IMG/VR virus record: IMGVR_UViG_3300037781_000208
Coordinates: 1 to 64,000 of that record
DNA length: 64,000 nt
From: a virus
Lineage: Duplodnaviria > Caudoviricetes
Reading direction: 5' to 3' (one strand)
Below the pieces are notes generated by a model that worked only from the letters and a program-made list of their open reading frames with translations, did no database searches and was not told the origin of the DNA. The position numbers and the translations under genes were made by a program. Shown piece by piece: positions 322 through 62,712 of this stretch; the first letter of the stretch is position 1; each line of letters opens with the position of its first letter.

Positions 322-1148
322 GCCCGTGGTTTCTTGTCAACCGTGCGTCGGACTAACTCGGCATAAGTATCGCCGTAAGTGCCCACATGATCGACGAGGT
401 TCGCCTCCTTGGCCTTGCGACCGATAAAGGTCTGTCCACGCATAGCATCCGGTCCAATGTTGCGGTGCTTCATGATGTGGTCGCGGAACTGAGCAAAGTA
501 CTCATCGACCATTTCCTGGAGGTGGGCGCGATGCGCATCTGTAAACGATGGTGGCCATGTGGCATCCTTCAGGTCGCCCCCGGTATGGGTTATGTAGGCC
601 GGCTTCCATCCCTGCTGTTCCCATTGGCCCGAAACGTCCACCAACGGCAGAATTGTGCCAATGCTCCCAACCTGTGCCGAGGGAGCCATGGCGATGAAGT
701 CGGCTCCGGCTGAAAGAGCGTATGCTGCCGAGGCTGCCAGTTCATCAATCCAAACAGCTTTCGGAGCTTTGATACGGGCCAACAGGTTTGCCGTCTCGAC
801 ATTCCCCGCCGCCATGCCCCCGGGTGAGTTCACATGAAAAAGGAATCCTCGGGCACCATCCTCCGCCGCGATCTGGACCTCATCCTCGATCTGCTCATAG
901 CTGGTGTTTCCACAGGAGCGTTCGATCTGGCTTAGGTGCCGCCCCAAGGTTCCCGTGATGTGAACATGGGCGATGCCGTTATTGTCGATCTCGGCATCTG
1001 GTCTCGGGTTCACAAACGGTGAGAGATCCAGATTGCCAGCCTCAGCGAAAATCCGGCTCTTAACAATCTGGTGCAGGGCAAGCCAGCCGTCGCTGGTAAT
1101 GTTCCATGCGGACCTGTATAAGGCGTTGGTAATGTGGGCGAGTCTCAT
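318..1148 (-). CDS. S49-family prohead protease (lambda gpC-like)
   Basis: VNSPGG, AASAAY, AQVGSIGT motifs; follows portal. Confidence 0.9.
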   Translation of the reverse strand: MRLAHITNALYRSAWNITSDGWLALHQIVKSRIFAEAGNLDLSPFVNPRPDAEIDNNGIAHVHITGTLGRHLSQIERSCGNTSYEQIEDEVQIAAEDGARGFLFHVNSPGGMAAGNVETANLLARIKAPKAVWIDELAASAAYALSAGADFIAMAPSAQVGSIGTILPLVDVSGQWEQQGWKPAYITHTGGDLKDATWPPSFTDAHRAHLQEMVDEYFAQFRDHIMKHRNIGPDAMRGQTFIGRKAKEANLVDHVGTYGDTYAELVRRTVDKKPRA

Positions 1149-1157
1149 GACTGAAAG

Positions 1158-1227
1158 TGGGACGAGGGGCAGGAATCGAACCTGCGTTGTCGGGTTATGA
1201 GCCCGACCGAATCCATATCACCCTCGC
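1158..1227 (-). tRNA. tRNA-Met(CAT)-like element with truncated D-arm
   Basis: Acceptor GCGAGGG/CCCTCGT, anticodon arm TCGGG-CTCATAA-CCCGA, T arm GCAGG-TTCGATT-CCTGC, encoded CCA; only 14 nt between acceptor and anticodon stems. Confidence 0.7.
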
Positions 1228-2651
1228 GCATCTTCCTCTTTCGCGCTGTCAACTGGTGGCTCCGTGCTAAGGACCATCTGGGTACCACTCGGCTTCCATA
1301 GCATTGAGACCGGAACCCCGTATTTTCCTGCAGCATCCAGAATTGCTCGGGCATCCTGTGCCCGGCGCTCCAGTTCCTCCCGGAAATCCATGCCAAGTTC
1401 CTGATAGTGGTCGGAGACCGTTTTTAGACCCGTCTCCACATCGGCCCGATTCTGTTGAGCCTCGCGGCCGGCGTCGACCGTAATGCGGCGGGGCGTTACC
1501 CATGCCACCTTGTTCCATCCCTTCATCGGAGGCAGGTCGCCACGGTCAATGGCATCTCCGATCACCCAGCCCCACGTCGGACGCAGGAACCGTTGAATCA
1601 GGATCAATTGCCGGTAGGAAAAGCGGCGGTCGGCCTTGGCCACAATCAACCGGACAGAGGCACCGCCCACCTTCGTTGGATCGAGGACGAACTCGTAAGG
1701 CAGCACACCCGCGCTGGAATCCCGCTTCAGATGCTCCAGGAAGCCAGTAAACACCGGACTTGGCCTGTTGGACTGAAAACTCTCCATCGACTCGCCCGGT
1801 TTCAGGGCAACCACCTTCCCGCCGACAATCTTTTGGATCGCAGTCGGATCGGTCTGTTCTGCCAATTCGCCCGTATCCGGTGAAACCCGAAAGTCGCCAT
1901 CGTCCTCGAGGGTGCCTTCCTGCCGCTTGATGATCCGAGAGACATCTTGGTTGTCCTTCACCGCATGCTTCTCAAGCGCGAGCATTTCCATCTCGTCCAA
2001 GATGTGATTGATCGAGTGCTGCATGGTCGGGTGATTGCGCGCTCCGCTGGCAAATTCCGGTTCAAAGACGTGCATGACCGCGTTGGCATAAACCGGACGG
2101 TAACTCGCGTCATCCTGCTGAACCATGTACGCCAAAGGTGCTCCGAATTCATCGAAGAGCACGCCATCAATGGAATCCGGGTCATCGGCTCCGGATCCCA
2201 CGCGGTGCGATTCCACAAGCTGGATGCGGGCGCGACCGAAGCGATCACGCACCTTTAGGACAAAGTATTCGCCGTCCACGTCGATGCCCCGGCAAACGAG
2301 ATTCTGACACTCCTCGAAGGAGAACCGGTTGGTGATCTCGGGGCGGTTGGCCCAACGTTCGAAGTATTCCTCGGCGGTTCGGTTCCATTCCGGATCTTGC
2401 GTTTGCGCCTGCGGTCGGATTCCATCCCCAGTCGAGTAGATCGCCATGTCTCCCACGACCTCACGGGCGAAGCCGCTGTTCTTGTTCAGGTACCGACTCT
2501 TGCGCACCAACTCACGCCGGGCGTGTGGAGTCAGTTCCTTTTTGGCGTCGCTAGGCGCGGCCCCAGGAACCCGGGAACGACGGGGCGAGTAATTGGCCGC
2601 TTCGTAAGGGGAAATCGACAGAATACGTGCAATGCGCTGAAGGATCTTCAC
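1218..2651 (-). CDS. Portal protein, lambda family
   Basis: Between head-tail joining gene and S49; ELVRKSRYL..NSGFA and YS..R-type motifs; GTG start. Confidence 0.9.
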   Translation of the reverse strand: MKILQRIARILSISPYEAANYSPRRSRVPGAAPSDAKKELTPHARRELVRKSRYLNKNSGFAREVVGDMAIYSTGDGIRPQAQTQDPEWNRTAEEYFERWANRPEITNRFSFEECQNLVCRGIDVDGEYFVLKVRDRFGRARIQLVESHRVGSGADDPDSIDGVLFDEFGAPLAYMVQQDDASYRPVYANAVMHVFEPEFASGARNHPTMQHSINHILDEMEMLALEKHAVKDNQDVSRIIKRQEGTLEDDGDFRVSPDTGELAEQTDPTAIQKIVGGKVVALKPGESMESFQSNRPSPVFTGFLEHLKRDSSAGVLPYEFVLDPTKVGGASVRLIVAKADRRFSYRQLILIQRFLRPTWGWVIGDAIDRGDLPPMKGWNKVAWVTPRRITVDAGREAQQNRADVETGLKTVSDHYQELGMDFREELERRAQDARAILDAAGKYGVPVSMLWKPSGTQMVLSTEPPVDSAKEEDARG

Positions 2652-2727
2652 GGCAGCAGCCGCGTGTCAAATAACCATAGTTTGTTTTATTGACACACTT
2701 TTTTAGATACAAACCTTTTACTGACTT

Positions 2728-3204
2728 ATGACAAAAAAATTAGTATTGAGTATCGTTGCCATTATGGCTTGTAAATCGTTCCTATCAGCAGAACGCTACG
2801 TAAATATAGGCGCAGCTTATGTTGAATCCATAGATAAGGTTGGTTTCACGACACAAGTTGGGTGGACTATAAACAATTCAGAAAGTTTTAATGCCGCAAT
2901 GGAATTGGACGTTTCTTATTACGAAAAATATTCAATCGATGTCATTCCAGCTATGGCAAATTTCAAACTTAGTACTAACCAATCTAACAATGTAAATGCT
3001 TACCTTGGATTTGGGTTTGGTGCGATAATTGGAGACGGTCCTCGGGGTACCAGTTATGAGACTTTTGCATTACAAGGTTTAGTTGGTGCCGTGTTTGAAA
3101 TTTCCGACACAGCAGATTACAAAATCGGCTATAGATATTTGTATGATCACAAACTCGATACCTACGACAACATAGGCGAGATGGGTATATCCTTTGCATT
3201 TTAA
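2728..3204 (+). CDS. Outer-membrane beta-barrel moron (OmpA/Ail/Lom-like)
   Basis: Signal peptide, alternating amphipathic strands, C-terminal ISFAF, AT-rich, opposite strand, own terminator. Confidence 0.7.
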   Translation: MTKKLVLSIVAIMACKSFLSAERYVNIGAAYVESIDKVGFTTQVGWTINNSESFNAAMELDVSYYEKYSIDVIPAMANFKLSTNQSNNVNAYLGFGFGAIIGDGPRGTSYETFALQGLVGAVFEISDTADYKIGYRYLYDHKLDTYDNIGEMGISFAF

Positions 3205-3262: not shown

Positions 3263-3509
3263 CGCAATACCCCACAAAGCCCGTCGCAGAGGTCTTGAGC
3301 GGCTTTCCGTAGGTCGCTGGGGCAAGTTTCTGGAGAGCTTTCTGACAGGCCGCTATGATTGTATGGATCTCGTCAATTCGGCGCTTGGTCACGCTCGAGC
3401 CATCATTGGCATAAGCGGCTAGGGTCTTCTTCAGTTCAGCCTTCTGGGCGGCGAGGATCTCTTCGACCTCGGCTTGGGTGAACCCGATGCTATAATCTAT
3501 CGCTGCCAT
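3255..3509 (-). CDS. Head-tail joining protein (gpW position)
   Basis: Start revised to MAAIDYSIGF; between terminase and portal; homologue at 56372-56626. Confidence 0.65.
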   Translation of the reverse strand: MAAIDYSIGFTQAEVEEILAAQKAELKKTLAAYANDGSSVTKRRIDEIHTIIAACQKALQKLAPATYGKPLKTSATGFVGYCEK

Positions 3510-5295
3510 CGGATGGTTCAACGGTGTCAACGCTCTCCCGTCCGATGATCTTGAGCATGGTCGCGCCAACGACTTGGAGACATTCGGCATCAAATAGGTG
3601 ATTCGGGCGCTTTCCGATCTGGACCCACATCCATTTGTCGCCCTTCTTGATACGGTGCTCAGATTCCATGTGCAGGAGGTATTCCTCGGGGATATCCTCG
3701 GGAATTTCCCAAGGGGGACTGCCATCCTGATTTCGGCGCAAGCGCGCAAGCGTGTCCTTCAGGTTTAAGTTCGACCAGTAATGCATCCGGCAAATCAGGC
3801 CGTTGGCGACATAGACCTTGCGAACCGGAGAGTAAAATCGTTGAACCCTGCGACCGGGTCCCACTTTGTGCATAAAAGTCGGGCGATGGTCGCCCATAAG
3901 AGCTGTCCAGCCATGACTGGCACACTGCCGATATACCTCGTAGCTGTTGTAACCGGCGTCCACAAATACAAGGCTTCCATGGATTTCAAAGCGCGCCTGT
4001 GCCCGCTCAATATCCTCCCACGTAAGAGCCCGTTCGCACCATAAAAGCCGCGAAGAGCCATCGGCACCCCATGCCCGGACAACCAGCCAAAAGTGATCCA
4101 TCTGTACGTCAACCGTGAGGAAGCGCAGTGGGACACATGTCAGATGATCAACCGGTTCATCCACCACAACATTTCCAGAAGTCAGGAACCCCTCCCCTGC
4201 CCACGGATCGCCCATCCGGTAGCCACTGCGGGTAATATCAGCCTTGAAGTCCTCCACATATTCCCTCCAAGGGAGTGCGAGGCGCTTCTGGTAGAACTGT
4301 TGTAGGAGTGTCGTATCGCCCTGCCTAGCGGCGGCCTTTGCCCGGAGGTATAACTCAGCCAACTTACCCCATGACATTGCACAAAGCGCGTTCCAATGAA
4401 ACCCGACGTTCTCCAAGGAGGCATTTGGATTGGTGCGAACAAATCTGCCTGTGGCGTTTAATTGCCGCCGCACAGCATCCGAATCCGGGAAGTAGTGGTT
4501 GCACTCACAGCAGCGCATGGAGGTGGTCGCTCGAACCTCCGTAAAATCCCATTCTCCATCGGATCCACGGGCTGATTTTGACCACTCTACGTTTTCCCAT
4601 TCAAAGGGCTGCCGGTGACCGCACTCTGGACAAGCAAATGTCCACTCGCGCATGTCGGTGGTTTCAAACTTCCGGTGGGTGTCATCATTCTCCTCGCCCC
4701 CTTGGGACATGAAGATGCACTTCCCAAGCCACCCGAACGCGGTCACGCGGGCTTCTGCTTCGGCCATGTGTCCCGTAGGCCATCTCCACGTTTCATCACC
4801 AATTAACCAGCGAATGGAGCGGCGCTGAAGGTTCGTCTTATTATGCGCCCCGAGAATCCAAAGCGTCATGCCATTGGCGAAGTGGATTGTGTGGTTGCGC
4901 TTCTTGTGCCGGTCGCGATGGAAGAGCAATTTAACCGGCTCGCATTCATCAAAGAGTTTTTGAATACGAGATTCTGACTGGTCCTTCGCGTCCTCGTCCG
5001 TCTGATCGAGCCAAAGGGTCGGTCCCGGTAAGTTTGCGATGATGTAGCAAAGCGTCAGCTCGGGCACCGTGGTCTTTGAGGACTGCACCGAAGCAAGGAT
5101 CGAGACGACCTTTACCCGTGGATCGACAATTGCCTCCATCACCTCGCGCACCCAGGGAGAGTTGTCCGAGCGGAAGCGGCCCGGCATCGGCGAATACGGG
5201 ATAGTGGCGATGTGTTCCTCCGCCCACTCCCAGGGAGGCCGTCGATCAGGAGGCTTTACGCCCTCCGCAAACATGCTGGCAATTTCACCGTTCAT
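3490..5295 (-). CDS. Terminase large subunit (lambda GpA family)
   Basis: PGRFR..SPW, SVQSSKT Walker A, LIGDE Walker B, Zn-finger CPECG, nuclease LTVDVQ, NHLFD; start revised to the ATGA-coupled ATG. Confidence 0.9.
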   Translation of the reverse strand: MNGEIASMFAEGVKPPDRRPPWEWAEEHIATIPYSPMPGRFRSDNSPWVREVMEAIVDPRVKVVSILASVQSSKTTVPELTLCYIIANLPGPTLWLDQTDEDAKDQSESRIQKLFDECEPVKLLFHRDRHKKRNHTIHFANGMTLWILGAHNKTNLQRRSIRWLIGDETWRWPTGHMAEAEARVTAFGWLGKCIFMSQGGEENDDTHRKFETTDMREWTFACPECGHRQPFEWENVEWSKSARGSDGEWDFTEVRATTSMRCCECNHYFPDSDAVRRQLNATGRFVRTNPNASLENVGFHWNALCAMSWGKLAELYLRAKAAARQGDTTLLQQFYQKRLALPWREYVEDFKADITRSGYRMGDPWAGEGFLTSGNVVVDEPVDHLTCVPLRFLTVDVQMDHFWLVVRAWGADGSSRLLWCERALTWEDIERAQARFEIHGSLVFVDAGYNSYEVYRQCASHGWTALMGDHRPTFMHKVGPGRRVQRFYSPVRKVYVANGLICRMHYWSNLNLKDTLARLRRNQDGSPPWEIPEDIPEEYLLHMESEHRIKKGDKWMWVQIGKRPNHLFDAECLQVVGATMLKIIGRESVDTVEPSDGSDRL

Positions 5296-5919: not shown

Positions 5920-6615
5920 TTACTTCATGAGGAGCCAACCGGCAAATTGAAGGTGCCGGTAGACCAGTTCATAGCGGACAAATCCCACCCTTCGGAACAG
6001 TGCTTCATTCTCGGCCACGGTCTGGGGGAACATCTGACCCCGCAGGGCAGCCGACTTGTTTAGCACTTCCTGAGGACTGAGGCCATTCTCCAGCTTCATG
6101 TCCCAATAGAGCGACTGGGTCATGTCCTGAAACTCCGGAATGCTGCCGAGAACCTTCTCCACCACGAAGAAGCCGCCCCCACGCTTGAGGGAGTCATAGC
6201 ATACGGACAGTACCGTTTGCTTGGCTCCTGGACGCAGAAACTGGAGGGTGTAAAGGGATACTCCGTAGTCATGCCCGCTGATTTGGGTGAGCATCGAGAG
6301 GTCACAGAAATGAACGTCCACCCCCTTGGCCTTGGCCTGCTGGATCATCGCACGTGAGTTGTCGTAGCCGATGACCTTGATGTCCTTTTGGGGATTGCGG
6401 GATTGGATTCTCAGCAAGGTCTCCCCCGTAGAGGCCCCAAGGTCGATCACCGTTCCGCCATCCTGCAGGAACCAGTCGCCGAAACTCGCCGCCAGATCCT
6501 GAATCCGATCATAGTCCGGTACACTCTTTCGAACGTGCTCATCGAAATGCGGGGCGACCTTCTCGTCGAAGACCCAGTTGCTGCGGGTTGTTTCAATGCC
6601 TTGTCCGGCTTCCAT
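5920..6615 (-). CDS. CmoA-like class I SAM-dependent methyltransferase
   Basis: WVFDEKVAPHF...RKSVPDY N-terminus, DLGASTG motif, YTLQFL, FFVVEK resemble the CmoA family. Confidence 0.75.
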   Translation of the reverse strand: MEAGQGIETTRSNWVFDEKVAPHFDEHVRKSVPDYDRIQDLAASFGDWFLQDGGTVIDLGASTGETLLRIQSRNPQKDIKVIGYDNSRAMIQQAKAKGVDVHFCDLSMLTQISGHDYGVSLYTLQFLRPGAKQTVLSVCYDSLKRGGGFFVVEKVLGSIPEFQDMTQSLYWDMKLENGLSPQEVLNKSAALRGQMFPQTVAENEALFRRVGFVRYELVYRHLQFAGWLLMK

Positions 6616-6638
6616 GCCGGGTAAGCTGGTGTCAACGA

Positions 6639-8662: not shown

Positions 8663-9312
8663 ATGCCCAACCGTTTCTTGAGTTCTTTCAACACGGATTC
8701 CTTGTCGAATCCCACTTCCTGTTTCACGGAATCAATCCAGGTAAGGTAGTCCTCCTGAGGCAGTTTGAAGCGGTACAGTCCAAGGGCAATGGTTACGTCG
8801 CCCTTCTCCAAATTCTCCTCCTCGTTGACGGCGTCCTCCGGCTCCGCTTCCATGGGCCTTAGAAGGCTCTCCAAATCCGCATCCTCAAAACCGGTCAGGA
8901 GGGTATCGAATCCATCCACCTTGAGGTCATTGACCACGGATTCGAGAGAATTCAGGTCCACGGTCGCCAGTTCCGCGAGACGGTTGTCAGCAATGAGCAC
9001 CGCCATCTCATCGTTTTCGCTGGCAAAGTCCTGATAGTCCACCGGCACCAACTTCAGCCCAAGATGCATCGCCGCGGCGAGTCGGCCATGGCCGGCCACA
9101 ATGTGTCCTGAAAGTTTGGACACAGTTATTGGGTGGCGGAATCCGAAGTAGCGGATATTTTTTGCCAGCAGGTCAATCTGCCGCGACGGATGCGTGTTCG
9201 GATTGCGCGGGTTGGGCGTCAACTCATCCACCGAAACCAGCTTGTCGAAGCTGCACCAGACTTCGATTCCATCAGCAAGGGATTTGGCTTTGATCGCGGC
9301 ATTTCCATTCAT
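8659..9312 (-). CDS. Stand-alone ParB N-terminal-like protein
   Basis: PNPRNPNTH, IVAGHGRL, ADNRLAE; start revised from homology with 62023-62676 and the TTGACA motif. Confidence 0.75.
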   Translation of the reverse strand: MNGNAAIKAKSLADGIEVWCSFDKLVSVDELTPNPRNPNTHPSRQIDLLAKNIRYFGFRHPITVSKLSGHIVAGHGRLAAAMHLGLKLVPVDYQDFASENDEMAVLIADNRLAELATVDLNSLESVVNDLKVDGFDTLLTGFEDADLESLLRPMEAEPEDAVNEEENLEKGDVTIALGLYRFKLPQEDYLTWIDSVKQEVGFDKESVLKELKKRLGI

Positions 9313-9343
9313 GCCAAAAAGGCCGGTGTCAATTACGTCCCTC

Positions 9344-9985: not shown

Positions 9986-10434
9986 ATCAGTCCCGCCTCC
10001 GAAAAGGAGTAGTACCCGATATTGCAGGGGTCGGCATCCTTGTCCCCGACAATGAGGTGGTCAAGGAGGTCGATTTGCATGGTCTTGGCCGCCTCTTTCA
10101 GTTGTCGAGTGGCCCGGATGTCCGCCTGACTCGGGGCAGGATCCCCGCTGGGATGGTTATGGGCCACGATCAGGGCTGTCGCATTACAGAGGATTGCCGG
10201 GCGGAGCACCTCCCGCGGATGAACCAGCGAGGCGGTGGCCGTTCCCTTGGTGATGGCTATGCGTCCGAGAGCACGGTTCTTGCGGTTCAACGGTATCACG
10301 AAAAACCATTCAACGGTGGGATCCGGATCGAACGCTCCCTCCATGTATTGAAAAACCCGCTCCGGGGAGTCTACCACCATGAGCGGGCCTGATTGCACGA
10401 GCTTGTACTTGAGGGAAGCCTCGTAGATTCTCAT
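9982..10434 (-). CDS. radC: RadC/JAB-domain protein
   Basis: VHPREV, AHNHPSGDPAPSQAD, LLDHLIV; start revised to the ATGA-coupled ATG. Confidence 0.9.
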   Translation of the reverse strand: MRIYEASLKYKLVQSGPLMVVDSPERVFQYMEGAFDPDPTVEWFFVIPLNRKNRALGRIAITKGTATASLVHPREVLRPAILCNATALIVAHNHPSGDPAPSQADIRATRQLKEAAKTMQIDLLDHLIVGDKDADPCNIGYYSFSEAGLI

Positions 10435-10919
10435 GCGCCCACCTCTCGACGCTCGTGCGCCCAACCGTCACGGCTGATCTTGCAAGAGAGTGTGTTCATC
10501 GGAATGTTCAATTCCTTGGCGATATCCTTGGGTCGCCTGCCCGACATATAAAGCGCCTTGGCCGCATCCCAATCCCTCCGTCGGGGACTGCCTCGCGTCT
10601 GAAATGGCGTCGGCTCCGGCGCCGCTTCCTCTTCATCGCCCTCTGACTGGAAGGCATCGTAGCGCTGCGCAGGTGGCGTCGGAATAGCTGGCCGAATCTC
10701 GGGCACTCTCGCTCCGGGCTGTCCTAAGATTTCCGCTACAATCTCTCGGATCAGCGGGACGGGGATTTCAGTGATCGAGAAGACCAGTCCGGTTAGGCTG
10801 GCTCGGCCCAGTTGATCCTTGAGGTGCTTTATCGCCGCCCCCCGCGTTCTCCCGAGATAGCGGCCCTCAAACAGGGTCTTATCGCCCTCCTCGCATACGA
10901 TCCAGTATAACTTATCCAT
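10431..10919 (-). CDS. C-terminal HTH DNA-binding protein
   Basis: DWDAAKALYMSG..PKDIAKELNIPMNTL..GW HTH; homologue at 63800-64000. Confidence 0.65.
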   Translation of the reverse strand: MDKLYWIVCEEGDKTLFEGRYLGRTRGAAIKHLKDQLGRASLTGLVFSITEIPVPLIREIVAEILGQPGARVPEIRPAIPTPPAQRYDAFQSEGDEEEAAPEPTPFQTRGSPRRRDWDAAKALYMSGRRPKDIAKELNIPMNTLSCKISRDGWAHERREVGA

Positions 10920-18627: not shown

Positions 18628-18661
18628 TTAGCCTCCTTGTTGGTGTCAACAACCGGAGGCA

Positions 18662-34182: not shown

Positions 34183-34192
34183 CGGAGAGTTC

Positions 34193-36559: not shown

Positions 36560-36682
36560 ACACTTTAGGGATATCTTGATGGTGCAATACCCCCGCAATA
36601 TCCCTTTCTCAAGGCAAAAATGTAAAGCGCATGAGGTCTATCCAGCGAAGAACTAGTATGCAGTGAATCCGCAAAGGGTTAA

Positions 36683-37936: not shown

Positions 37937-37999
37937 ACTTCGATATTAGAAGACTTCGGCTTCGAAATCAACGACTTGCTAGGCAGAAAGAAATGATTT

Positions 38000-46224: not shown

Positions 46225-46242
46225 TCAATGGCCAGCGGCGTG

Positions 46243-50267: not shown

Positions 50268-50703
50268 GGACGGGCTGGATGGTTAAAACCTTGAAGTTGC
50301 AGAAGTAGACCACCAGACCGCCATCGAGGGGCCCGGCTTCGTAGGCGGGGGTGTCAACCGTGAGCACATTCTGGAGTCCCCGCTGGGTCGGCCAGTTCGC
50401 CTGATGGAGCCATTGCAGGACCTCTTCCACGCACTGCAGGCAGGTTTTGCCGGTCTGGTTGGTGGCGGGATTCTCCAAGACACTCACCATAACGATATTC
50501 TCAAGGTAGAGCCGCGGACCCTTGCCGCCTGCCGGCCCCCCGGAAGCCTGTGTCACGACAAGGCAGATGCCGGTTTCCCGCAGGGCTGTTTCGAGCTTCG
50601 AGTTGAAGGATTCCTCCACAGTCGAGAGGATCTCAATTCCCGCGAAAAAGGCGTTCTGCCCGAGTGTGGTGATAATGTGCGAGATGACTTCCGAAAGCCT
50701 CAT
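50260..50703 (-). CDS. Tail terminator-like protein
   Basis: 147 aa, directly upstream of the tail tube gene. Confidence 0.55.
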   Translation of the reverse strand: MRLSEVISHIITTLGQNAFFAGIEILSTVEESFNSKLETALRETGICLVVTQASGGPAGGKGPRLYLENIVMVSVLENPATNQTGKTCLQCVEEVLQWLHQANWPTQRGLQNVLTVDTPAYEAGPLDGGLVVYFCNFKVLTIQPVHE

Positions 50704-51077
50704 GCCGGAGAAGGCATGTCAACGTGGCAGCCTCTATCCTCGTAAGGGCATGCGTGGCGCAGGACCGGCATACGTGGCAACGCACTCATTGGGATGTAAT
50801 GCTCACCTTCACGAAGCTGTCTCCGCGTGCAAAGGGCCCAATGGCCACAGGGGTGCCAGTAAAGCACCTGCGCCTCTCCTGCCTCCACCTCAGTCGCCAC
50901 TCTCGGGACCAGATGCACCGGGGCGATCGTCGGCCTGACCTTCTCTTTGAGATTCGTCCATATCCATGCGGCGCGGGAGAAGTTGTAGCTGTTCGCCGTG
51001 TTGATCGGTGAAACCCGCTGGCAGAGCTGCCCGTCCAGCATGAACCAGCCACCAACCTGAATGTCGTCAAAAATCAT
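50700..51077 (-). CDS. Hypothetical protein in the neck module
   Basis: ATGA-coupled at both ends; start revised to MIFDDIQ. Confidence 0.5.
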   Translation of the reverse strand: MIFDDIQVGGWFMLDGQLCQRVSPINTANSYNFSRAAWIWTNLKEKVRPTIAPVHLVPRVATEVEAGEAQVLYWHPCGHWALCTRRQLREGEHYIPMSALPRMPVLRHACPYEDRGCHVDMPSPA

Positions 51078-51906: not shown

Positions 51907-52217
51907 GGGTTCAAAACAGCGCATTCCACGCGGGCGATCAGTGAATTGGGGCTACGGTGCAGACGAGTCACCCGGTAAAGGAATCCATCCTCATCAGTGA
52001 GGCTCGCCCCGACCTTTAGGGCATCGGAGGGGATTTCAGAACGGAAGGCGGAAACCAGCACGCTGTCATCATCAGATGGAGTAAGGTCATATTCCTCACT
52101 CTCCGGTTGCAGTCGCTTAACGAGTCCCCGGAACGCTGTTACGCCATGCGTGAAGGTGCGACCGGTCGCTTCCAGTAATTCCTCGAATCCCTCCAATTGA
52201 TCGGTGGTGTGACTCAT
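51903..52217 (-). CDS. Head-closure/head-tail adaptor-like protein
   Basis: 104 aa after the capsid gene; LKVG..LTD.DG..YRVT. Confidence 0.6.
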   Translation of the reverse strand: MSHTTDQLEGFEELLEATGRTFTHGVTAFRGLVKRLQPESEEYDLTPSDDDSVLVSAFRSEIPSDALKVGASLTDEDGFLYRVTRLHRSPNSLIARVECAVLNP

Positions 52218-52242
52218 GTCTGCAAGAGCCTGTCAACCGGTC

Positions 52243-52277
52243 AAAGAAAGAGGCCCCACCGTCGCCAGTGGAGCCTC
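52243..52277 (-). terminator. Intrinsic terminator after the major capsid gene
   Basis: GAGGCTCCAC-TGGCGACG-GTGGGGCCTC stem followed by TTTCTTT. Confidence 0.75.
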
Positions 52278-52311: not shown

Positions 52312-53214
52312 TCAGGCAACGTCCTCGATGCGGAGAATACCATCGGTGATGGCGGTGCGCCGGCCATAGACACACTCGAAAGCGGCGATTTCCTTGCCGG
52401 AGTCGTTGTCGTAGAAACGCCGGTACCCGATGGTGATTCCGGTCTCGGGATCCGTGACGGCTCCCGTTTCCAGGTAGGACTCCGGGCGCAGCGGTTGCAG
52501 GTAGCGCATCGCCACAGCCAGTCCCTTCGGATGTGCCACAAAACCGACGAGATTCTCCGTGTTGTCCGGCATGATGGTCGTCTCATAGACATCAAAGCCG
52601 TAGATGCGCGGGATGCGGGCCTCCATCAGAGAGGGAGCACTCATCTGCGCGAGGTAGCTCTGGGAGACCTTGGGATCGCCCAGCAAATTCGTGTAGTAGG
52701 CGTCGTTGATGATGAGGGCACGTGAAGCCACCGGCATGTTCTTGGCCGCACAGGCACCACGCAAAGAGAGAACCGTGGAGGCATCGAAGTCGGCGGCGGC
52801 CACCGCAGGGATCCCAGCCGCACCGTAGTTGGCGATGGTGACGATGTTCCAGATGTCCGTGAGAACATCCTCGGCCAACTGCCGGGCCTTTTCCTCGGCC
52901 AGGCGTTCCATGGTGGGCCAACTGGATTCACTCACTTCCTTGTCCGTCAGGTGCAGGGACTGAACCTTGTGGCGGTCCAGAACGACCGGCAGCGAATTGA
53001 CGTTCGAATCCATGTTCTCCGAGTAGCTCCCCGCAAAGTCGTAGGAGGCGCCAGCGGCACCGACCACCGGCACATTCACCGTCTTCCCGCGTTCAATGAA
53101 CTCGCTGGAAAAGTCGGTCGAGAACGCACGCAGGGGCGTGAGGGCGGCGACAAAGGTTTTGAGAAACTTGTCCGCAATGCGGATGTCCTGAAGATTGGTG
53201 AGGGTGTTGGCCAT
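52312..53214 (-). CDS. Major capsid protein
   Basis: 300 aa after protease and scaffold genes; GKTVNVPV, FVAHPKGLAVAMR, VYG; followed by a terminator. Confidence 0.85.
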   Translation of the reverse strand: MANTLTNLQDIRIADKFLKTFVAALTPLRAFSTDFSSEFIERGKTVNVPVVGAAGASYDFAGSYSENMDSNVNSLPVVLDRHKVQSLHLTDKEVSESSWPTMERLAEEKARQLAEDVLTDIWNIVTIANYGAAGIPAVAAADFDASTVLSLRGACAAKNMPVASRALIINDAYYTNLLGDPKVSQSYLAQMSAPSLMEARIPRIYGFDVYETTIMPDNTENLVGFVAHPKGLAVAMRYLQPLRPESYLETGAVTDPETGITIGYRRFYDNDSGKEIAAFECVYGRRTAITDGILRIEDVA

Positions 53215-53243
53215 GACTGGTTCTTGATGTCAACTGTTGAGGG

Positions 53244-53711
53244 TTACTTGCCGATGAGGGCGTCGCGGTGCTTGCGGAAGAAAGCGGTTTTCTTTGCCGG
53301 ATCGGTGATGGCGTTGAACTGCTCAAGGAGATCGGCCTGCTTCGCATCGCCTGCTGGGGTCACCTGGACAGGATCCACTCCAACAGAGGCGCAGATTTCA
53401 GCGGCTTTGCTCTCCGCTTCTTTTGCTTCGGATTCCAACTGCGCAATGCGGGCATCAGCTTCGGCCTGCTTCTCCTTTGCCTGGGCGAGGTCGTGGTCCA
53501 ACTGCTTTTCCTTCTCGTGGGCAGCGTTCAGATCATTGGTCAGGGCCGTGATCTTCTGGTTGGCATCCTCCAGCATTTCACTGGCGGCGGTAAGATCGCC
53601 CCGGACGGCATCCAGCTCGTCAGCCGAGCTTTGATGGGCCGAGAGCAGATTGGCGTAAGCCTCGCGTGCTTGGGCGAGTGTGTTCAGTTCTTCCGATGCG
53701 GCGAATTTCAT
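53244..53711 (-). CDS. Coiled-coil capsid-scaffold-like protein
   Basis: Ala/Glu/Lys heptads; between protease and capsid genes. Confidence 0.7.
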   Translation of the reverse strand: MKFAASEELNTLAQAREAYANLLSAHQSSADELDAVRGDLTAASEMLEDANQKITALTNDLNAAHEKEKQLDHDLAQAKEKQAEADARIAQLESEAKEAESKAAEICASVGVDPVQVTPAGDAKQADLLEQFNAITDPAKKTAFFRKHRDALIGK

Positions 53712-54535
53712 GCCTTCTTTGGCATGTCAACCAGACGCAGCAACTCGGCATAGGTATCGGCGTAACTGCCCACGTGATCCACGAGGTTTGCCTCCTTTGC
53801 TTTGCGACCAATAAAGGTCTGCCCGCGCATGGCATCCGGACCGATGTTACGATGTTTCACGACATGATCGCGGAACTGCCCGAAATACTCATCCACCATT
53901 TCCTGTAGGTGTTCCCGGTGCGCGTCCGTGAATGATGGTGGCCAGGTTGCATCCTTCAGGTCGCCCCCGGTATGGGTGATGTAGGCGGGCTTCCAGCCGC
54001 GCTGTTCCCATGCCCCGGACACATCCACAAGGGGCAGGATCGTTCCGATGCTTCCGACCTGCGCCGAGGGCGACATCGCAATAAAGTCCCCGGAAGCGGC
54101 CAGTGCATAGGCAGCCGAAGCTGCCAGTTCATCAATCCATACGGCCTTCGGCTTTTTGATGCCGCTTAACATTTGGGCTGTCTCCACATTCCCGGCCGCC
54201 ATGCCTCCAGGGGAATTTACGTGGAAGAGGAATCCCCGGGCGCCATCCTCGACAGCAATCTGGACTTCCTCCTCAATCTGCTCGTAACCGGTGTTTCCGC
54301 AGGAGCGTTCAATCTGGCTTAAGTGCCGTCCCAGGGTTCCCGTGATATGAACATGGGCGATTCCCTGCTCGTCGATCTCGGCATCCGGGCGGGGATTCAC
54401 GAAGTCCGACAACTGAAGGTTCGAGGGATCCGCAAATATCCTGCTCTGGAATATCTGGTGCAGGGCGAGCCATCCGTCACTGGTAATGTTCCATGGAGCG
54501 CGGTAAAGGGCGTTGGTGATGTGGGCGAGTCTCAT
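53708..54535 (-). CDS. S49-family prohead protease
   Basis: Close paralogue of 318-1148. Confidence 0.9.
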   Translation of the reverse strand: MRLAHITNALYRAPWNITSDGWLALHQIFQSRIFADPSNLQLSDFVNPRPDAEIDEQGIAHVHITGTLGRHLSQIERSCGNTGYEQIEEEVQIAVEDGARGFLFHVNSPGGMAAGNVETAQMLSGIKKPKAVWIDELAASAAYALAASGDFIAMSPSAQVGSIGTILPLVDVSGAWEQRGWKPAYITHTGGDLKDATWPPSFTDAHREHLQEMVDEYFGQFRDHVVKHRNIGPDAMRGQTFIGRKAKEANLVDHVGSYADTYAELLRLVDMPKKA

Positions 54536-54544: not shown

Positions 54545-54614
54545 TGGGACGAGGGGCAGGAATCGAACCTGCGTTGTCGGGTTATGAGCCCGACCGAATC
54601 CATTTCACCCTCGC
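54545..54614 (-). tRNA. tRNA-Met(CAT)-like element with truncated D-arm (copy B)
   Basis: 69/70 nt identical to 1158-1227; the single difference is in the D-loop region. Confidence 0.7.
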
Positions 54615-54972: not shown

Positions 54973-56346
54973 GTTTGAGCCCTGCGGTTTGTAGAGCATT
55001 TCGGGAGGTACTCCGTATTTATTGGCAGCATCAATGATCGCTCTCGCATTCTGCCCCCGCTTTTCCAGCTCCTCCCGGAAATCCATGCCCAGTTCGGCGA
55101 AGTGATCGTCCAGGGTCTTAAGCCCTGTCTCCACATCTGCGCGATTTTGCTGGGCCTCCCGTCCGGCGTCGACTGTGATGCGTCGGGGCGTCACCCATGC
55201 CACCTTGTTCCAGCCCTTCTTGGGTTCCAACTCGCCACGGTCGATGGCATCCCCAATGACCCAGCCCCATGTGGGACGCAGGAATCGCTGGATGAGGATC
55301 AGTTGGCGATAGGAAAAGCGCCGGTCGGCCTTGGCGACAATCAATCGGACTGAAGCTCCGCCAACCTTTGTCGGGTCGAGGACAAACTCATAAGGGAGAA
55401 CGCCCGCACTGCTGTCCCGCTTCAAGTGCTCCAGGAATCCCGTGAAGACCGGGCTGGGTCGATGCGATTGGAAACTCTCCATGGATTCGCCTGGCTTCAA
55501 AGCCACCACCTTGCCCCCCACAATCTTTTGAATCGCAGTCGGATCACTCTGCTCGGCCAATTCACCCGTATCCGATGAGACCCGGAAATCCCCATCGTCC
55601 TCGAGTGTTCCCTCCTGACGCTTGATGATCCGGGATACATCCTGATTGTCCTTAACTGCGTGCTTCTCCAGCGCGAGCATCTCCATTTCATCAAGAACGT
55701 GGTTGATCGAGTGCTGCATGGTCGGATGGCTGCGGGCGCCGCTGGCAAACTCCGGTTCAAAGACGTGCATCACCGCGTTGGCGTAAACCGGTCGGTAAGT
55801 GCCATCATCCTGCTGGACCATGTAAGCCAAGGGTGCCCCAAATTCATCGAAGAGCACTCCGTCAATGGATTCGGCATCATCGGCGCCGGACCCAACCCGG
55901 TGTGACTCAACCAACTGGATGCGGGCGCGGCCAAGGCGGTCGCGAACTTTCAGCACAAAGTATTCGCCGTCCACGTCGATGCCTCGGCAGACAAGGTTCT
56001 GGCATTCTTCGAAAGAGAATCGGTTCGTTACCTCCGGACGGTTGCACCAGCGAAGAAAATACTGCTCTGCAGCGCGATTCCATTCGGGATCTTCGGTCTG
56101 CGCTTGTGGCCGGATTCCATCCCCGGTAGAGTAGATCGCCATGTCGCCCACCACTTCACGGGCAAATCCGCTGTTCTTGTTCAGGTACCGGCTCTTGCGC
56201 ACCAGTTCACGCCGGGCGTGCGGGGTTAGTTCCTTTTTTGCATCGGTGGGCGCGGCTCCAGGGACCCGGGAACGGCGCGACGAGTAATTGGCCGCCTCGT
56301 AGGGGGAAATCGACAGGATGCGGGCAATGCGCTGGAGGATCTTCAC
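54955..56346 (-). CDS. Portal protein, lambda family
   Basis: Paralogue of 1218-2651 with a different C-terminus. Confidence 0.9.
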   Translation of the reverse strand: MKILQRIARILSISPYEAANYSSRRSRVPGAAPTDAKKELTPHARRELVRKSRYLNKNSGFAREVVGDMAIYSTGDGIRPQAQTEDPEWNRAAEQYFLRWCNRPEVTNRFSFEECQNLVCRGIDVDGEYFVLKVRDRLGRARIQLVESHRVGSGADDAESIDGVLFDEFGAPLAYMVQQDDGTYRPVYANAVMHVFEPEFASGARSHPTMQHSINHVLDEMEMLALEKHAVKDNQDVSRIIKRQEGTLEDDGDFRVSSDTGELAEQSDPTAIQKIVGGKVVALKPGESMESFQSHRPSPVFTGFLEHLKRDSSAGVLPYEFVLDPTKVGGASVRLIVAKADRRFSYRQLILIQRFLRPTWGWVIGDAIDRGELEPKKGWNKVAWVTPRRITVDAGREAQQNRADVETGLKTLDDHFAELGMDFREELEKRGQNARAIIDAANKYGVPPEMLYKPQGSNLSYKD

Positions 56347-56371
56347 GGCTCCGGCGCCATGTCAATCAGGA

Positions 56372-56626
56372 CTACTTTTCCAGATGGCCCACGAACCCGG
56401 TCGCTGATGTTTTCAATGGCTTTCCGTATGTCGCCGGATCGAGCTTCTGCAGGGCCTTCTGGCAGGCGGCGATGACCGTATGAATCTCGTCAATCCTACG
56501 CTTGGTGACGCTGGATCCGTCATTTGCGTAGGCGGCCAAGGTCTTCTTCAGTTCAGCCTTTTGCGAGGTTAGGATTTCCTCGACCTCCACCTGGGTAAAT
56601 CCAATGCTGTAATCAACAACTGCCAT
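56372..56626 (-). CDS. Head-tail joining protein (gpW position)
   Basis: MAVVDYSIGF; paralogue of 3255-3509. Confidence 0.65.
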   Translation of the reverse strand: MAVVDYSIGFTQVEVEEILTSQKAELKKTLAAYANDGSSVTKRRIDEIHTVIAACQKALQKLDPATYGKPLKTSATGFVGHLEK

Positions 56627-56650
56627 TGAACAATTTGGACCTGTCAACCC

Positions 56651-59376: not shown

Positions 59377-60072
59377 TTACTTCATGAGGAGCCAACCGGC
59401 GAATTGCAGATGCCGGTAGACCAGTTCATAGCGGACAAAGCCAACACGGCGAAAGAGTGCCTCGTTCTCAGCCACGGTCTGCGGGAACATCTGGCCACGC
59501 AGGGCAGCGGACTTGTTGAGAACCTCCTCGGGACTGAGCCCGTTCTCCAGCTTCATCTCCCAATACAGGGACTGGGTGATGTCCTGGAATTCCGGAATGC
59601 TCCCAAGAACCTTCTCAACAACGAAGAAGCCGCCTCCTCGTTTGAGGGAGTCATAGCATACAGACAGTACCGTTTGCTTGGCCCCTGGCCGGAGGAACTG
59701 GAGCGTATAGAGGGACACCCCGTAGTCATGCCCGCTGATTTGGGTGAGCATGGAAAGGTCGCAGAAATGGACATCGACCCCCTTTGCCTTGGCCTGCTGG
59801 ATCATCGCCCGGGAGTTGTCGTAGCCGATGACCTTGATGTCCTTCTGGGGATTGCGGGATTGAATTCTCAGCAGGGTCTCTCCGGTGGAGGCCCCAAGGT
59901 CGATCACTGTTCCGCCATCCTGCAGGAACCAGTCGGCAAAGCTCGCCGCCAGATCCTGAATGCGGTCATAATCCGGCACACTCTTTCGAACGTGCTCATC
60001 GAAATGAGGGGCGACCTTCTCGTCGAACACCCAGTTGCTGCGGGTTGTCTCAATGCCTTGTCCGGCTTCCAT
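59377..60072 (-). CDS. CmoA-like methyltransferase
   Basis: Near-identical to 5920-6615. Confidence 0.75.
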   Translation of the reverse strand: MEAGQGIETTRSNWVFDEKVAPHFDEHVRKSVPDYDRIQDLAASFADWFLQDGGTVIDLGASTGETLLRIQSRNPQKDIKVIGYDNSRAMIQQAKAKGVDVHFCDLSMLTQISGHDYGVSLYTLQFLRPGAKQTVLSVCYDSLKRGGGFFVVEKVLGSIPEFQDITQSLYWEMKLENGLSPEEVLNKSAALRGQMFPQTVAENEALFRRVGFVRYELVYRHLQFAGWLLMK

Positions 60073-60095
60073 GCCGGGGAAGCTGATGTCAACGA

Positions 60096-60518: not shown

Positions 60519-62026
60519 AGCTTCCCTCCCAATCGTTTTTCAAAGGCCGCAATTGCCTCTTGGGCCAAGCCCATCCGGGTGCCGTCCGGGTATGGCAGAT
60601 CAAATTCAAATTCAAGAGCCGCCCTGAGCCGGTCCTTGTCGACTGGCAGGGCGTGGGCGCATGTAGCGGTGATGTTATTACTCATCTCCCTTACTTTGAC
60701 GGAGCGAAAGAAGGGAGTCCAGAGCTGATGGAATTCTTTCTCGGTGTGGTACTTTTGGACCTTCGGTTTGTCCTGAAAATCACCGATGCGAATGCCGCTT
60801 TCGTAATCGAGGCGAAAGGCGATGTTCGCCGAGTTGGACTTGTTCAAGAAGGCCTTGCCGTTGACCTGTCGCCAACCGGTTTCGCTCACGCTGGAGGCGC
60901 AGGCATAGACTTTTGTTTCCGGGCGGCAGAGTGCCTGGAGGATGACCGCGATGTGCTCGCGGTCCGATTGAAACGGCACCGAGTTGAGGACACTCGCGAG
61001 AAAGATCGATGTCCATTCCTGACCGCCCGACACCGCTTCCAAAAACTCCCGACAGATGACGAGGCTCTTGTCCTTGTCGATCTCTGAGCGGGTGATGTGG
61101 TAGGGCTCGAAGGCTGTCACCTCAAAACCGGCCGCCCGGAGGATCTTCGTTTCCGTGAGATGGCCGGCGCCGAAGTCGAGGATCCGGGTCCCATGTTCGC
61201 GCACCCATGCCGCCTTCTGTTTTGCATTGAAGATGTCGAAGGTGTGGCATGGCTTGGATCCATGGACGGCAAAGATGAAGCCGTTGCCCAATTCCTCCCG
61301 GACGCGCCGGGCCCGCCGGAATGAGTTGTAGCGAAGGAGGTCGTCGTAACGACTCTCCACATCAAAATCCATGGAAAGCAGATTCATCATCGCCTCCGCG
61401 AAAGCCGCCTCATCGTCCGAAACATACACCACCGGGGCGGTGTCGATCTTCTTCTCCGCAAGCATCTCCAATCGGCCAATGCCATTGATGACTGTTCCGT
61501 CGCCCTTGCAAATAATCGGCATCAGAATCCCGTGGCGGTGAAGGGTCCGGGCAAGGTTTCTGGCATACTGCATCCAGCGGTTGGAATTTGTCCTGCACAG
61601 TTCCTTCACACTTACCTGATTGGGAGTGAGACAGCGAATGAACTCCGGGGAGTCGACCGCCTTGTCGGGAATGGCCTCTGCCAACCGGTGGACATCGAGG
61701 GCGGCCAGTTCCCTCGTCGCTTTCTGCGGAGTAGTGTTCCAGTCAAAGTCATTGGTCGCCCGATTGAAGACAATGTTCAGCGCCTTGCGCTGGGCCAAGT
61801 CCATCGGGCGGGTGCGGAACACTGGCAACTGCTTCGCCCCCATTCGGGTCGCCACCAGATGTCGCTGGTGCCCGGACAGAATCTCCCCGTTCGCATCGGC
61901 AAAGATAGGTGCCAGAAAACCGAGTTTCCGAAGGGAGAGCTCAATCAGATCCAGTCGTTCGGGATCGGCACTGCGGGGATTATAGGTGCTGGGCTGGATG
62001 GCCTCGATGTCTTCCAGGCGAATCAT
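60515..62026 (-). CDS. ParB-ParB-methyltransferase fusion
   Basis: Paralogue of 7058-8662. Confidence 0.7.
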   Translation of the reverse strand: MIRLEDIEAIQPSTYNPRSADPERLDLIELSLRKLGFLAPIFADANGEILSGHQRHLVATRMGAKQLPVFRTRPMDLAQRKALNIVFNRATNDFDWNTTPQKATRELAALDVHRLAEAIPDKAVDSPEFIRCLTPNQVSVKELCRTNSNRWMQYARNLARTLHRHGILMPIICKGDGTVINGIGRLEMLAEKKIDTAPVVYVSDDEAAFAEAMMNLLSMDFDVESRYDDLLRYNSFRRARRVREELGNGFIFAVHGSKPCHTFDIFNAKQKAAWVREHGTRILDFGAGHLTETKILRAAGFEVTAFEPYHITRSEIDKDKSLVICREFLEAVSGGQEWTSIFLASVLNSVPFQSDREHIAVILQALCRPETKVYACASSVSETGWRQVNGKAFLNKSNSANIAFRLDYESGIRIGDFQDKPKVQKYHTEKEFHQLWTPFFRSVKVREMSNNITATCAHALPVDKDRLRAALEFEFDLPYPDGTRMGLAQEAIAAFEKRLGGKL

Positions 62027-62676
62027 ATGCCGAGCCGTTTCTTGAGTTCCTTCAATACGGATTCCTTGTCGAATCCCACCTCCTGTTTCACGGAATCAAT
62101 CCAGGTGAGGTAGTCCTCCTGGGGGAGCTTGAATCGGTAAAGTCCAAGAGCGATAGTCACGTCACCTTTTTCGAGGTCCTCCTCTTCGGCGTCCGTATCA
62201 TCGGGAGCGTTGCCTTCGGGATTGAGGAGACTGTCCAAGTCCGCGTCCTCAAAACCGGTGAGGAGCGTATCAAACCCGTCTACCTTGAGGTCATTGACCA
62301 CGGATTCGAGCGAGTTTAAATCAATGCTGGCCAGCTCCGCGAGGCGGTTGTCGGCAACAAGCACCGCCATTTCATCGTTCTCGCTGGCAAAATCCTGATA
62401 GTCGACCGGCACAAGCTGCAAGCCAAGGTGTTTGGCGGCGGCAAGGCGACCGTGGCCGGCGACAATCAATCCGCTTCGCTTGGAGACTGTGATTGGGTGA
62501 CGCCATCCAAAATAGCGGATGTTCTTCCCCAAGAGCTCGATCTGGCGGGCGGGGTGCGTGTTCGGGTTGCGAGGGTTGGGTTGCAGATCCTCTACGGGCA
62601 CAAGTTTGTCAAAGCCGCACCAGACTTCGATGCCATCGGCCAATCCCTTCGCCTTCACTTCATTGGGTTCGCTCAT
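62023..62676 (-). CDS. ParB N-terminal-like protein
   Basis: Paralogue of 8659-9312. Confidence 0.75.
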   Translation of the reverse strand: MSEPNEVKAKGLADGIEVWCGFDKLVPVEDLQPNPRNPNTHPARQIELLGKNIRYFGWRHPITVSKRSGLIVAGHGRLAAAKHLGLQLVPVDYQDFASENDEMAVLVADNRLAELASIDLNSLESVVNDLKVDGFDTLLTGFEDADLDSLLNPEGNAPDDTDAEEEDLEKGDVTIALGLYRFKLPQEDYLTWIDSVKQEVGFDKESVLKELKKRLGI

Positions 62677-62712
62677 GCGGGTGGGCAGGATGTCAATTCA
62701 CCCGCTTCACAG

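Follow-up and report, generated by a model that had tools for sequence, protein, structure and literature searches.

What is the function of the hexamer TTGACA, the sigma70 -35 consensus, that stands 13-16 nt upstream of the start codons of many phage late genes, far closer than the 29-30 nt expected of a -35 box? The question is raised by a stretch of 64 kb, below called the window, which is the start of an 82.8-kb contig (virus record IMGVR_UViG_3300037781_000208) and covers two tandem co-linear prophages, A and B, with approximately 65-82% nucleotide identity in a self-comparison of the contig. The hexamer with the bases conserved around it is referred to as the box. Its positional association with gene starts is confirmed and very strong. 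The favoured, though unproven, explanation would be a promoter, and the box lies outside the known geometries of both promoters and ribosome-binding sites.

TTGACA is not frequent on the contig as such: 30 copies were found compared to 31.3 in shuffled sequences, that is, at the chance level. It is the placement that is unusual. The minus strand holds 27 of the 30 copies, and 17 of the 30 have ATG or GTG 13-16 nt downstream, with a background of 3.8% (p=5.5e-17). Among all 4096 hexamers TTGACA ranks first by association with ATG or GTG of long open reading frames (ORFs) at this distance, and the same all-hexamer test on the contig gave nothing comparable for the plus strand. No second peak of in-frame starts was seen 29-31 nt past the hexamer in the contig test. 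The protein profiles of the capsid and the protease align from residue 1 of the annotated starts. The hexamer is also enriched at this position in related phages and not in host DNA (below). In the preliminary description of the window eighteen boxes had been assigned to start codons. All these hexamers and their spacings lie on the minus strand where they had been placed, and the starts at N13-N16 hold for sixteen of them. The other two positions, 1231 and 54618, are not start codons: the boxes there lie 19 nt upstream of phage tRNA-Met genes. The prophages and the sites are listed below.

Positions 1 to ~21.2 kb (1-21300 in a side list), minus strand: prophage A, truncated by the contig start.
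Positions ~38.7 to ~77.5 kb of the contig (38700-64000 within the window), minus strand: prophage B, delimited by self-comparison.
Positions 319-340, minus strand, A: TTGACA (340-335), N13, ATG at 321 of the scaffold-like gene; the box lies within the 3' end of the protease gene.
Positions 1252-1158, minus strand, A: TTGACA (1252-1247), 19 nt, tRNA-Met (1227-1158); the protease ATG (1148) is 9 nt past the tRNA CCA end.
Positions 2649-2670, minus strand, A: TTGACA, N13, GTG at 2651 of the portal gene.
Positions 3507-3530, minus strand, A: TTGACA, N15, ATG at 3509 of the gene for an 84-aa protein between the large terminase and portal genes; the box lies within the terminase 3' end.
Positions 6613-6635, minus strand, A: TTGACA, N14, ATG at 6615 of a tRNA-methyltransferase-like gene.
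Positions 9310-9332, minus strand, A: TTGACA, N14, ATG at 9312 of a ParB-like gene, the first late-block gene with the box.
Positions 12934-12955, minus strand, A: TTGACA, N13, ATG at 12936 of the gene for a conserved 251-aa protein with no assigned function.
Positions 18625-18649, minus strand, A: TTGACA, N16, ATG at 18627 of an excisionase-like (HTH_17) gene; AGGAGG in the spacer makes this a mixed, uncertain case.
Positions 46222-46246, minus strand, B: TTGACA, N16, ATG at 46224 of the tape measure gene; the upstream ORF terminates at TGA of the box.
Positions 50701-50722, minus strand, B: TTGACA, N13, ATG at 50703 of a head/tail gene of 147 aa; this start also shares ATGA with the stop codon upstream.
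Positions 52215-52277, minus strand, B: capsid-gene terminator hairpin (52277-52250) and T-tract, TTGACA (52236-52231), N13, ATG at 52217.
Positions 53212-53233, minus strand, B: TTGACA, N13, ATG at 53214 of the major capsid gene.
Positions 53709-53730, minus strand, B: TTGACA, N13, ATG at 53711 of the scaffold-like gene; the box lies within the protease 3' end.
Positions 54639-54545, minus strand, B: TTGACA (54639-54634), 19 nt, tRNA-Met (54614-54545); the protease ATG (54535) is 9 nt past the CCA end.
Positions 56344-56365, minus strand, B: TTGACA, N13, GTG at 56346 of the portal gene.
Positions 56624-56647, minus strand, B: TTGACA, N15, ATG at 56626 of the 84-aa protein gene.
Positions 60070-60092, minus strand, B: TTGACA, N14, ATG at 60072 of the tRNA-methyltransferase-like gene.
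Positions 62674-62696, minus strand, B: TTGACA, N14, ATG at 62676 of the ParB-like gene, the first late-block gene with the box.

Six pairs of sites are orthologous between A and B, and hence the window represents approximately 12 independent gene families rather than 18. The late block with boxes spans the region from the ParB-like gene to the tape measure gene, and early genes have GGAG or AGGAGG, the Shine-Dalgarno (SD) words, in place of the box. The late-gene bias seen in the preliminary description is thus real, and no listed spacer contains an SD word except the one upstream of position 18627. The claim that the box precedes each translational unit is overstated: it does recur before many genes, but only about 10 of approximately 45 genes of prophage B carry it. 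Strong early SD words are found, for instance, at 17347, 18270 and 10919 of the window and at 73597 and 67334 of the contig. The host clade rarely uses SD sites, and the phage thus combines two start strategies, divided by temporal class. The capsid-gene terminator is the sole strong terminator, and, as had been noticed before, the box at 52236-52231 follows its T-tract immediately. One more copy of TTGACA lies inside the 147-aa gene (50352-50357), approximately 85 nt before the next start; the copy and its flanks are conserved in the distant relatives L002, L003, L007, L008 and L009, which could reflect a protein constraint or an internal unit.

A profile search of a viral collection yielded 303 relatives of the portal protein, and 80 contigs (976 kb) were analysed; 11 relatives from genome contigs constitute loci L001-L011. 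In the 80 viral contigs TTGACA occurs in 505 forward and 29 reverse copies, and 385 of the 505 forward copies have a start 13-16 nt downstream. In the distant subset, with portal identity of approximately 63-68%, 243 of 310 copies precede a start at this distance (p=2e-249), and TTGACG is likewise enriched. By spacing, the unique units are distributed as N13 196, N14 66, N15 28, N16 40, N17 6 and N20 15. In the 11 genome-contig relatives nearly all hexamers are on the coding strand, mostly 13-14 nt upstream of ATG or GTG. Grouping of 70 sites by the downstream protein produced 26 gene families. In each of the 10 families with several members the hexamer is invariant while the spacers and upstream flanks diverge, and within families the spacing varies only between 13 and 15 nt. 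A second, mosaic prophage in one of the host genomes (G002:C34) also has boxes, and a divergent gene pair there carries one box per strand. Close relatives of the portal occur in metagenome-assembled genomes of Oceanipulchritudo, Coraliomargarita, Puniceicoccaceae, Opitutales and Rubritalea. Thus the hosts are Verrucomicrobiota, and the prophages of the window come from Opitutales/Puniceicoccales, that is, marine Verrucomicrobia. The box is widespread in Verrucomicrobia phages, strict and phage-specific.

One might suppose that the box has no role in expression at all and reflects either chance and shared ancestry or the strand-biased survival of an asymmetric site of a Type III-like restriction system. 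Many sites are indeed orthologous, and a bias towards one orientation is a product of Type III avoidance, as for EcoP15I sites in T7. However, avoidance of restriction would not place sites 13 nt before starts. Nor would it account for head-to-head boxes at the divergent pair, for boxes upstream of reverse-strand genes, or for a hexamer that is retained in 26 gene families as its flanks diverge. The positional statistics of the distant subset contradict this explanation directly, and we consider it hardly credible.

The box consists of two parts. The logo reads c-G-TTGACA, followed by nine C-rich, A/T-poor positions, G at +11 (59%), G at +12 (70%) and a pyrimidine at +13 (93%; C 78%, T 15%), after which N13 units have A (60%) or G (40%) of the start codon. 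Hence 93% of N13 units have a pyrimidine-purine step at -1/+1, and GTG accounts for 40% of N13 starts. The GG at +11/12 keeps its distance to the hexamer in the N14, N15, N16, N17 and N20 classes, and thus it belongs to the box and not to the context of the start codon. The box, therefore, is bipartite: G-TTGACA, approximately ten C-rich bases, GG, and the pyrimidine-purine step. This agrees with the GNC or GGC spacer ends described earlier (G 60%, G 50% and C 69% at -3, -2 and -1).

Several structured or sigma-dependent signals were tried and rejected. A few sites look palindromic, as if an RNA hairpin could hide the start codon, but 197 N13 units show neither nested covariation nor any helix-like covariation between spacer columns. 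A hidden -10 element, or TG of the start codon acting as an extended -10, is excluded by the column frequencies: T, A and T occur at the expected -10 positions in 1%, 6% and 7% of units, respectively. A scan with the promoter consensus found no promoter at any box. Judged from the logos, the layouts of sigma-54, sigma-32 and extracytoplasmic function (ECF) promoters do not fit the spacings. For the sigma-54 pattern, GG and GC at a distance of 10 nt (-24/-12), no conserved GG was found 10-11 nt upstream of the hexamer, where G makes up merely 35-44%. The box units also lack an AT-rich word of the T4 late promoter type.

The hosts do not use the box themselves. In five host genomes TTGACA-N13-ATG is at the control level outside prophages, and in three of them it is about equal to the reversed control. 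Many of the matches lie in prophage contigs, and the excess in genome G003 is caused by repeated copies of few sequences. The hexamer test on 400 kb of host DNA gave nothing. Since, in addition, none of 60 unambiguous host starts carries the box, a host-wide ribosome-binding signal was rejected. In a Rubritalea genome, locus L037 (G003:C52:490001-510000) contains a tandem array with a period of approximately 1.3 kb, each unit with TTGACATGTCCATTC.CAGATG. The host 16S rRNA has a normal CCUCC tail and ends in GAUCACCUCCUUUCU. Pairing of the box with 16S rRNA was rejected as well: the 3' tail of the host molecule has no complement of UUGACA, and one host has an internal UGUCAA (approximately nt 430-445) that another lacks.

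What the hosts do have is a longer layout with the same hexamer. An SD-like word precedes only 18% of the 60 host starts, which agrees with PMC10783764, where Verrucomicrobia are classed as "SD-scarce". In four host genomes the pattern TTGACA-N16-18-TANNNT-N5-8-ATG has 20 matches compared to 1 in the control; when the spacing is shifted by 6 nt, the numbers are 6 and 3. By these counts the hosts use leaderless mRNAs transcribed from ordinary promoters. In the lytic phage P8625, which infects Puniceicoccales sp. IMCC8625, TTGACA stands exactly 30 nt upstream of the ATG of four genes, and at least three of these units also have a -10 element of the TATTGG or TATCTG type. No short TTGACA-N13-16 unit occurs in the P8625 genome.

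Boxes upstream of tRNA genes bear on the level at which the signal acts. The tRNA-Met genes (anticodon CAT; 1158-1227 and 54545-54614, minus strand) are 70 nt long, encode CCA (ARAGORN; Rfam 43-45 bits) and lie between a box and the protease start. A tRNA gene is present at this place in 4 of the 80 viral contigs and in 7 of the 11 genome-contig loci, in two sequence types. In all tRNA-bearing loci the box is retained 18-24 nt (mostly 19) upstream of the tRNA, although the bases in between differ. In L007, which has no tRNA, the protease gene is directly preceded by TTGACA-N13-GTG, and the L006 lineage has two separate boxes, one before the tRNA and the other before the protease gene. The main lineage (type 1) has no separate box for the protease gene, whose ATG is 9-10 nt past the CCA end in all type-1 loci. 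A signal for translation alone has no place upstream of a tRNA, and the box must therefore be more than that.

In the tRNA itself the end pair is G1.U72 or A1-U72, the D arm is reduced, and three G-C pairs (GGG/CCC) close the anticodon stem, which is an initiator-like trait. A box-led gene of each prophage (5920-6615 and 59377-60072, minus strand) matches the PHROG family "tRNA methyltransferase" (E=1e-58); beside it are two ParB-like genes, one of which is a fusion with a methyltransferase. A phage tRNA along with a tRNA-modifying enzyme hints that the phage may tamper with translation.

The protease gene also suggests that the box could be a word for RNA processing, where an endoribonuclease recognises UUGACA and produces 5' ends near the starts; at the protease gene, cutting out the tRNA would have a comparable effect. 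The constant 9-10 nt between the tRNA 3' end and the protease ATG in the type-1 loci means that a 5' end beside the start recurs, and a hexamer this strict, with no mismatches, is similar to the words that nucleases recognise. On the other hand, known sequence-specific RNases cut at or beside their word and not 13-16 nt away, no such nuclease is present among the annotated genes, and neither the depletion of antisense copies (below) nor the box directly after the terminator is explained. This makes processing a very unlikely explanation.

The distribution of the hexamer between strands is more telling. In eight phages (115 kb) antisense TGTCAA occurs only 4 times in coding-strand ORFs, compared to 18.0 +/- 3.8 in synonymous shuffles that preserve the protein sequence and codon usage; none of 300 shuffles had so few. 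Host coding DNA has no such strand asymmetry (0.19 and 0.17 copies per kb, rates that are affected by spurious antisense ORFs). Among the 36 reverse copies, counted with loci L001-L011, several precede reverse-strand genes as short or canonical units, and the few canonical long units of this family are on the other strand, before reverse-strand genes. Because of these genes and the divergent pair, the orientation of the box can be said to follow the gene rather than the genome. Taken together, the tRNA box, the antisense depletion and the gene-following orientation indicate that the box is a phage-specific expression signal at the DNA level.

The alternative is a signal in RNA: a phage-encoded or phage-modified factor would bind UUGACA in the late polycistronic mRNA and recruit or block ribosomes at starts that have no SD site, which would make the box a translational operator or a ribosome-binding element of the phage. 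Several observations fit. The tolerance of 13-16 nt in spacing is akin to that of SD sites; the box-led genes lack SD words in hosts that are themselves SD-poor; among the phage genes are one for tRNA-Met, with an initiator-like anticodon stem, and another that resembles tRNA methyltransferases; and the position mirrors that of the start-associated sequences of Cluster K mycobacteriophages. However, such a signal has no use before a tRNA gene, least of all in the lineage with separate tRNA and protease boxes, and it leaves the antisense depletion unexplained. The lack of a 16S complement and of covarying spacer structure also argues against it, as does GG at +11/12, which tracks the hexamer and not the start codon. 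On balance we consider an RNA-level signal unlikely.

A compact promoter is the most economical reading of these data. The box upstream of the tRNA, the antisense depletion, the orientation and the pyrimidine-purine step, the high share of GTG and the box directly after the terminator all point to it, as do the late-gene bias and the leaderless promoters of the hosts. In such a model transcription would start approximately 14 nt past the hexamer. The transcripts of the N13 class would begin at A or G of the start codon and be leaderless, and those of the minor spacing classes would begin 1-7 nt before the start codon. The SD-poor, leaderless-competent host may then translate the resulting late mRNAs. 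The tRNA transcript would acquire a 5-nt leader removed by RNase P, and once the tRNA is cut out, at most 9 nt of leader would remain on the protease mRNA, so that a 5' end beside the start codon may be the common theme. Since a hexamer at -19 to -14 without a -10 element is unreadable by the normal sigma-70 holoenzyme, we infer that a phage-encoded factor reads or licenses the box in lytic growth; dependence on it would also keep the late genes silent in the lysogen. That the box is a compact promoter which depends on a phage factor and yields leaderless or near-leaderless late mRNAs has, in our estimate, not quite an even chance.

A number of facts weigh against this model. A hexamer centred near -16.5 is incompatible with the geometry of region 4 of sigma-70. 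The spacer, as noted earlier, has no TATAAT, and even TANNNT occurs in just 5 of 291 unique units, so that there is no -10 element; with 69% G+C, compared to the family mean of 59%, it would require melting of GC-rich DNA. An SD-like word is seen by eye between the box and ATG in approximately one third of the listed N16 units, and a transcript starting at +14 would cut this word off and make it useless. GG at +11/12 is not a conserved feature before the type-1 tRNA. Sense-strand copies away from gene starts are not depleted and, by a rough count, are close to the expectation from the host rate, which suggests that the hexamer alone may be insufficient. Finally, no sigma factor or RNA polymerase domain was found by Pfam and PHROGs in the 40 structural, late-block and early-region ORFs scanned, a set that excludes small ORFs and the 1498-aa ORF, and a sequence search in PDB with one fold search gave no obvious reader. 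Of the two options offered in the preliminary description, the DNA-level, promoter-like one is favoured over the RNA-level initiation element, with the sigma-70 misfit, the GC-rich spacer and the failure to find a reader standing against it.

Two candidate readers gave no support: a clamp-loader/RuvB-like AAA+ protein, which was not found in several box-bearing relatives (L003, L008, G002:C34), and the conserved 251-aa protein, which has no informative relatives. A conserved 162-aa protein is encoded at the head of the late block (10431-10919, minus strand) and in 23 related loci. Its predicted fold comprises a confident small alpha/beta N-terminal domain, a disordered linker and a C-terminal helix-turn-helix (HTH) domain with a weak resemblance to LuxR, GcrA and resolvase-type domains (Z 4-5; best Z at most 6.0; Foldseek E at least 0.12). 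From this model the protein is a candidate regulator or reader, and no more. Proteins of 98 and 140 aa from the same part of the late block are further candidates.

A DNA-binding protein of this kind could instead serve silencing similar to that by the stoperators of Cluster A mycobacteriophages, where a phage repressor binds G-TTGACA-N10-GG and halts RNA polymerase at gene boundaries in the lysogen. The widely conserved small HTH protein at the head of the late block would suit such a role. The box is restricted to the temperate family and absent from the lytic P8625; it is asymmetric, has approximately 10-20 copies per genome and is oriented by the direction of transcription; and the L5 stoperator consensus contains TGTCAA. 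However, a roadblock has no need of a tight 13-14 nt spacing to starts, and the early genes, which would also need silencing, lack the box. With approximately 16 bits of sequence, some hundred sites would occur in a host genome of 4 Mb. Stoperators placed in the reverse orientation do nothing and cause no harm, and thus antisense depletion is not predicted. Silencing of this type appears improbable.

To return to the compact promoter, its architecture would be novel: a -35-type hexamer near -16.5 and GG-Y would direct the host RNA polymerase to start leaderless mRNAs without a -10 element, GC-rich DNA would melt, a factor would reposition or replace region 4 of sigma, and the late genes would be silent in the lysogen. 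This more specific version is put forward tentatively, as somewhat less likely than not. Should the boxes prove to be promoters, the geometry accepted for bacteria would not hold for them, since they offer only a -35 word, 13 nt ahead of the start, and lack an AT-rich element for melting; this would point to a so far undescribed way of redirecting host RNA polymerase. If they act in RNA, they are a phage-specific ribosome-binding signal without SD sites in a phylum where translation initiation is poorly understood. In either case the box provides a simple and very specific rule for annotation of gene starts and late genes in a large group of uncultured phages. A cultured host-phage pair from the same order, IMCC8625 and P8625, exists, so the question is testable there.

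As for the rest of the window, Pfam and PHROGs assign to each prophage a lambda-like siphovirus module with the small and large terminases, the 84-aa protein, portal, ClpP-type protease, scaffold-like protein, major capsid protein and tape measure protein. The early blocks encode an HTH_17 protein, AAA_24, Gp157, primase/helicase and ERCC4 nuclease. A and B are unlike in replication, with primase and helicase as two genes in A and, in B, the 1498-aa ORF, which lies beyond the window. The large right-end ORFs of A and B (18766-21064) have no Pfam match. Only A contains, between the terminase and portal genes, a low-GC opposite-strand gene of 158 aa (2690-3204, plus strand), moron-like in appearance, with TTGACA 32 nt upstream; in the corresponding region of B there are approximately 300 extra nucleotides between the terminase gene and the 84-aa gene. 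The prophages have the same orientation and are separated by approximately 17 kb. In this gap, the segments 25574-27988 and 28675-30745 contain a paralogous pair of integrase-like genes, only one of which has a weak Phage_integrase match, and two FGE-sulfatase genes, and a low-GC (43-46%) island lies at 31400-38000. The island encodes a fusion of Mrr nuclease and ResIII helicase (553 aa), a HATPase_c_3 protein (788 aa) and a GNAT acetyltransferase, and is probably a defence island.

No description of the layout TTGACA-N13-16-start was found in the literature searched, and the box departs in at least one defining feature from every known system with which it was compared. From the canonical sigma-70 promoter it has the exact TTGACA at every site, but the start expected 29-30 nt past the hexamer would fall 16-17 nt inside the ORF. 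The leaderless sigma-70 promoters of the host order and of P8625 share with it the same TTGACA, the host clade and a fixed distance to the start. In contrast, their canonical unit is TTGACA-N17-TANNNT-N6/7-ATG, with the hexamer ending 29-30 nt before ATG, whereas the short unit is 16-17 nt shorter and has no -10 element. Unlike an SD site, the box is not complementary to the 3' end of 16S rRNA and stands 13-16 nt away from the start, compared to 5-10 nt for SD sites.

Phenomenologically, the closest systems are the start-associated sequences (SAS) of Cluster K and the stoperators of Cluster A mycobacteriophages. The SAS is a 13-bp word of the GGGATAGGAGCCC type with an SD core, found 3-7 bp from the start of non-structural genes only (PMC3203893). 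Like the box, SAS and the associated ESAS are phage-specific asymmetric repeats in one orientation, which precede a subset of starts, are conserved across gene families and have no known function (PMC3203893). The box differs in being a promoter-type word of 6-7 bp with GG, in its distance of 13-16 nt, and in preceding mainly structural and late genes as well as a tRNA gene. Each Cluster A stoperator is a 13-bp site for the repressor; more than 20 copies are spread over the genome at no set distance from start codons, and they act by blocking elongation (PMC9283540). The similarity is that both are asymmetric repeated sites at gene boundaries with the orientation locked to the direction of transcription.

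Among phage late promoters, those of AR9/phiKZ have the form AACA-N6-TA/G, precede approximately 100 late genes of jumbo phages with leaders of 26-491 nt and are read by a multisubunit polymerase of the phage (PMC5312081). They demonstrate that a short word with a spacer of constant length can suffice, and they share the pyrimidine-purine start with the box, but in the present temperate phages of approximately 40 kb no polymerase gene was found in the scanned ORFs. The T4-type late system combines an AT-rich -10-only word with a gp55-like sigma factor, a clamp and a clamp loader; a clamp-loader-like AAA+ protein does exist here, but was not found in several relatives with the box. Functionally, Thermus phages are the closest. 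Sixteen late promoters of phage Lalka27a carry TAGGGT 6 nt ahead of the start, and transcription from them begins with the first base, A or G, of the start codon; the host polymerase is presumed to be retargeted by a phage factor, with no need for antitermination (bioRxiv 10.64898/2026.04.20.719267). The phage phiYS40, as cited in that preprint, is a further precedent for dense leaderless late promoters. In these phages the promoter is a TANNNT-type -10 element 6 nt before the start, and the transcription starts are mapped, whereas the box is a -35 word at -19 to -14 known from sequence. Common to both is a short promoter, or candidate promoter, immediately upstream of many late genes, with a conserved word at a fixed short distance from the start.

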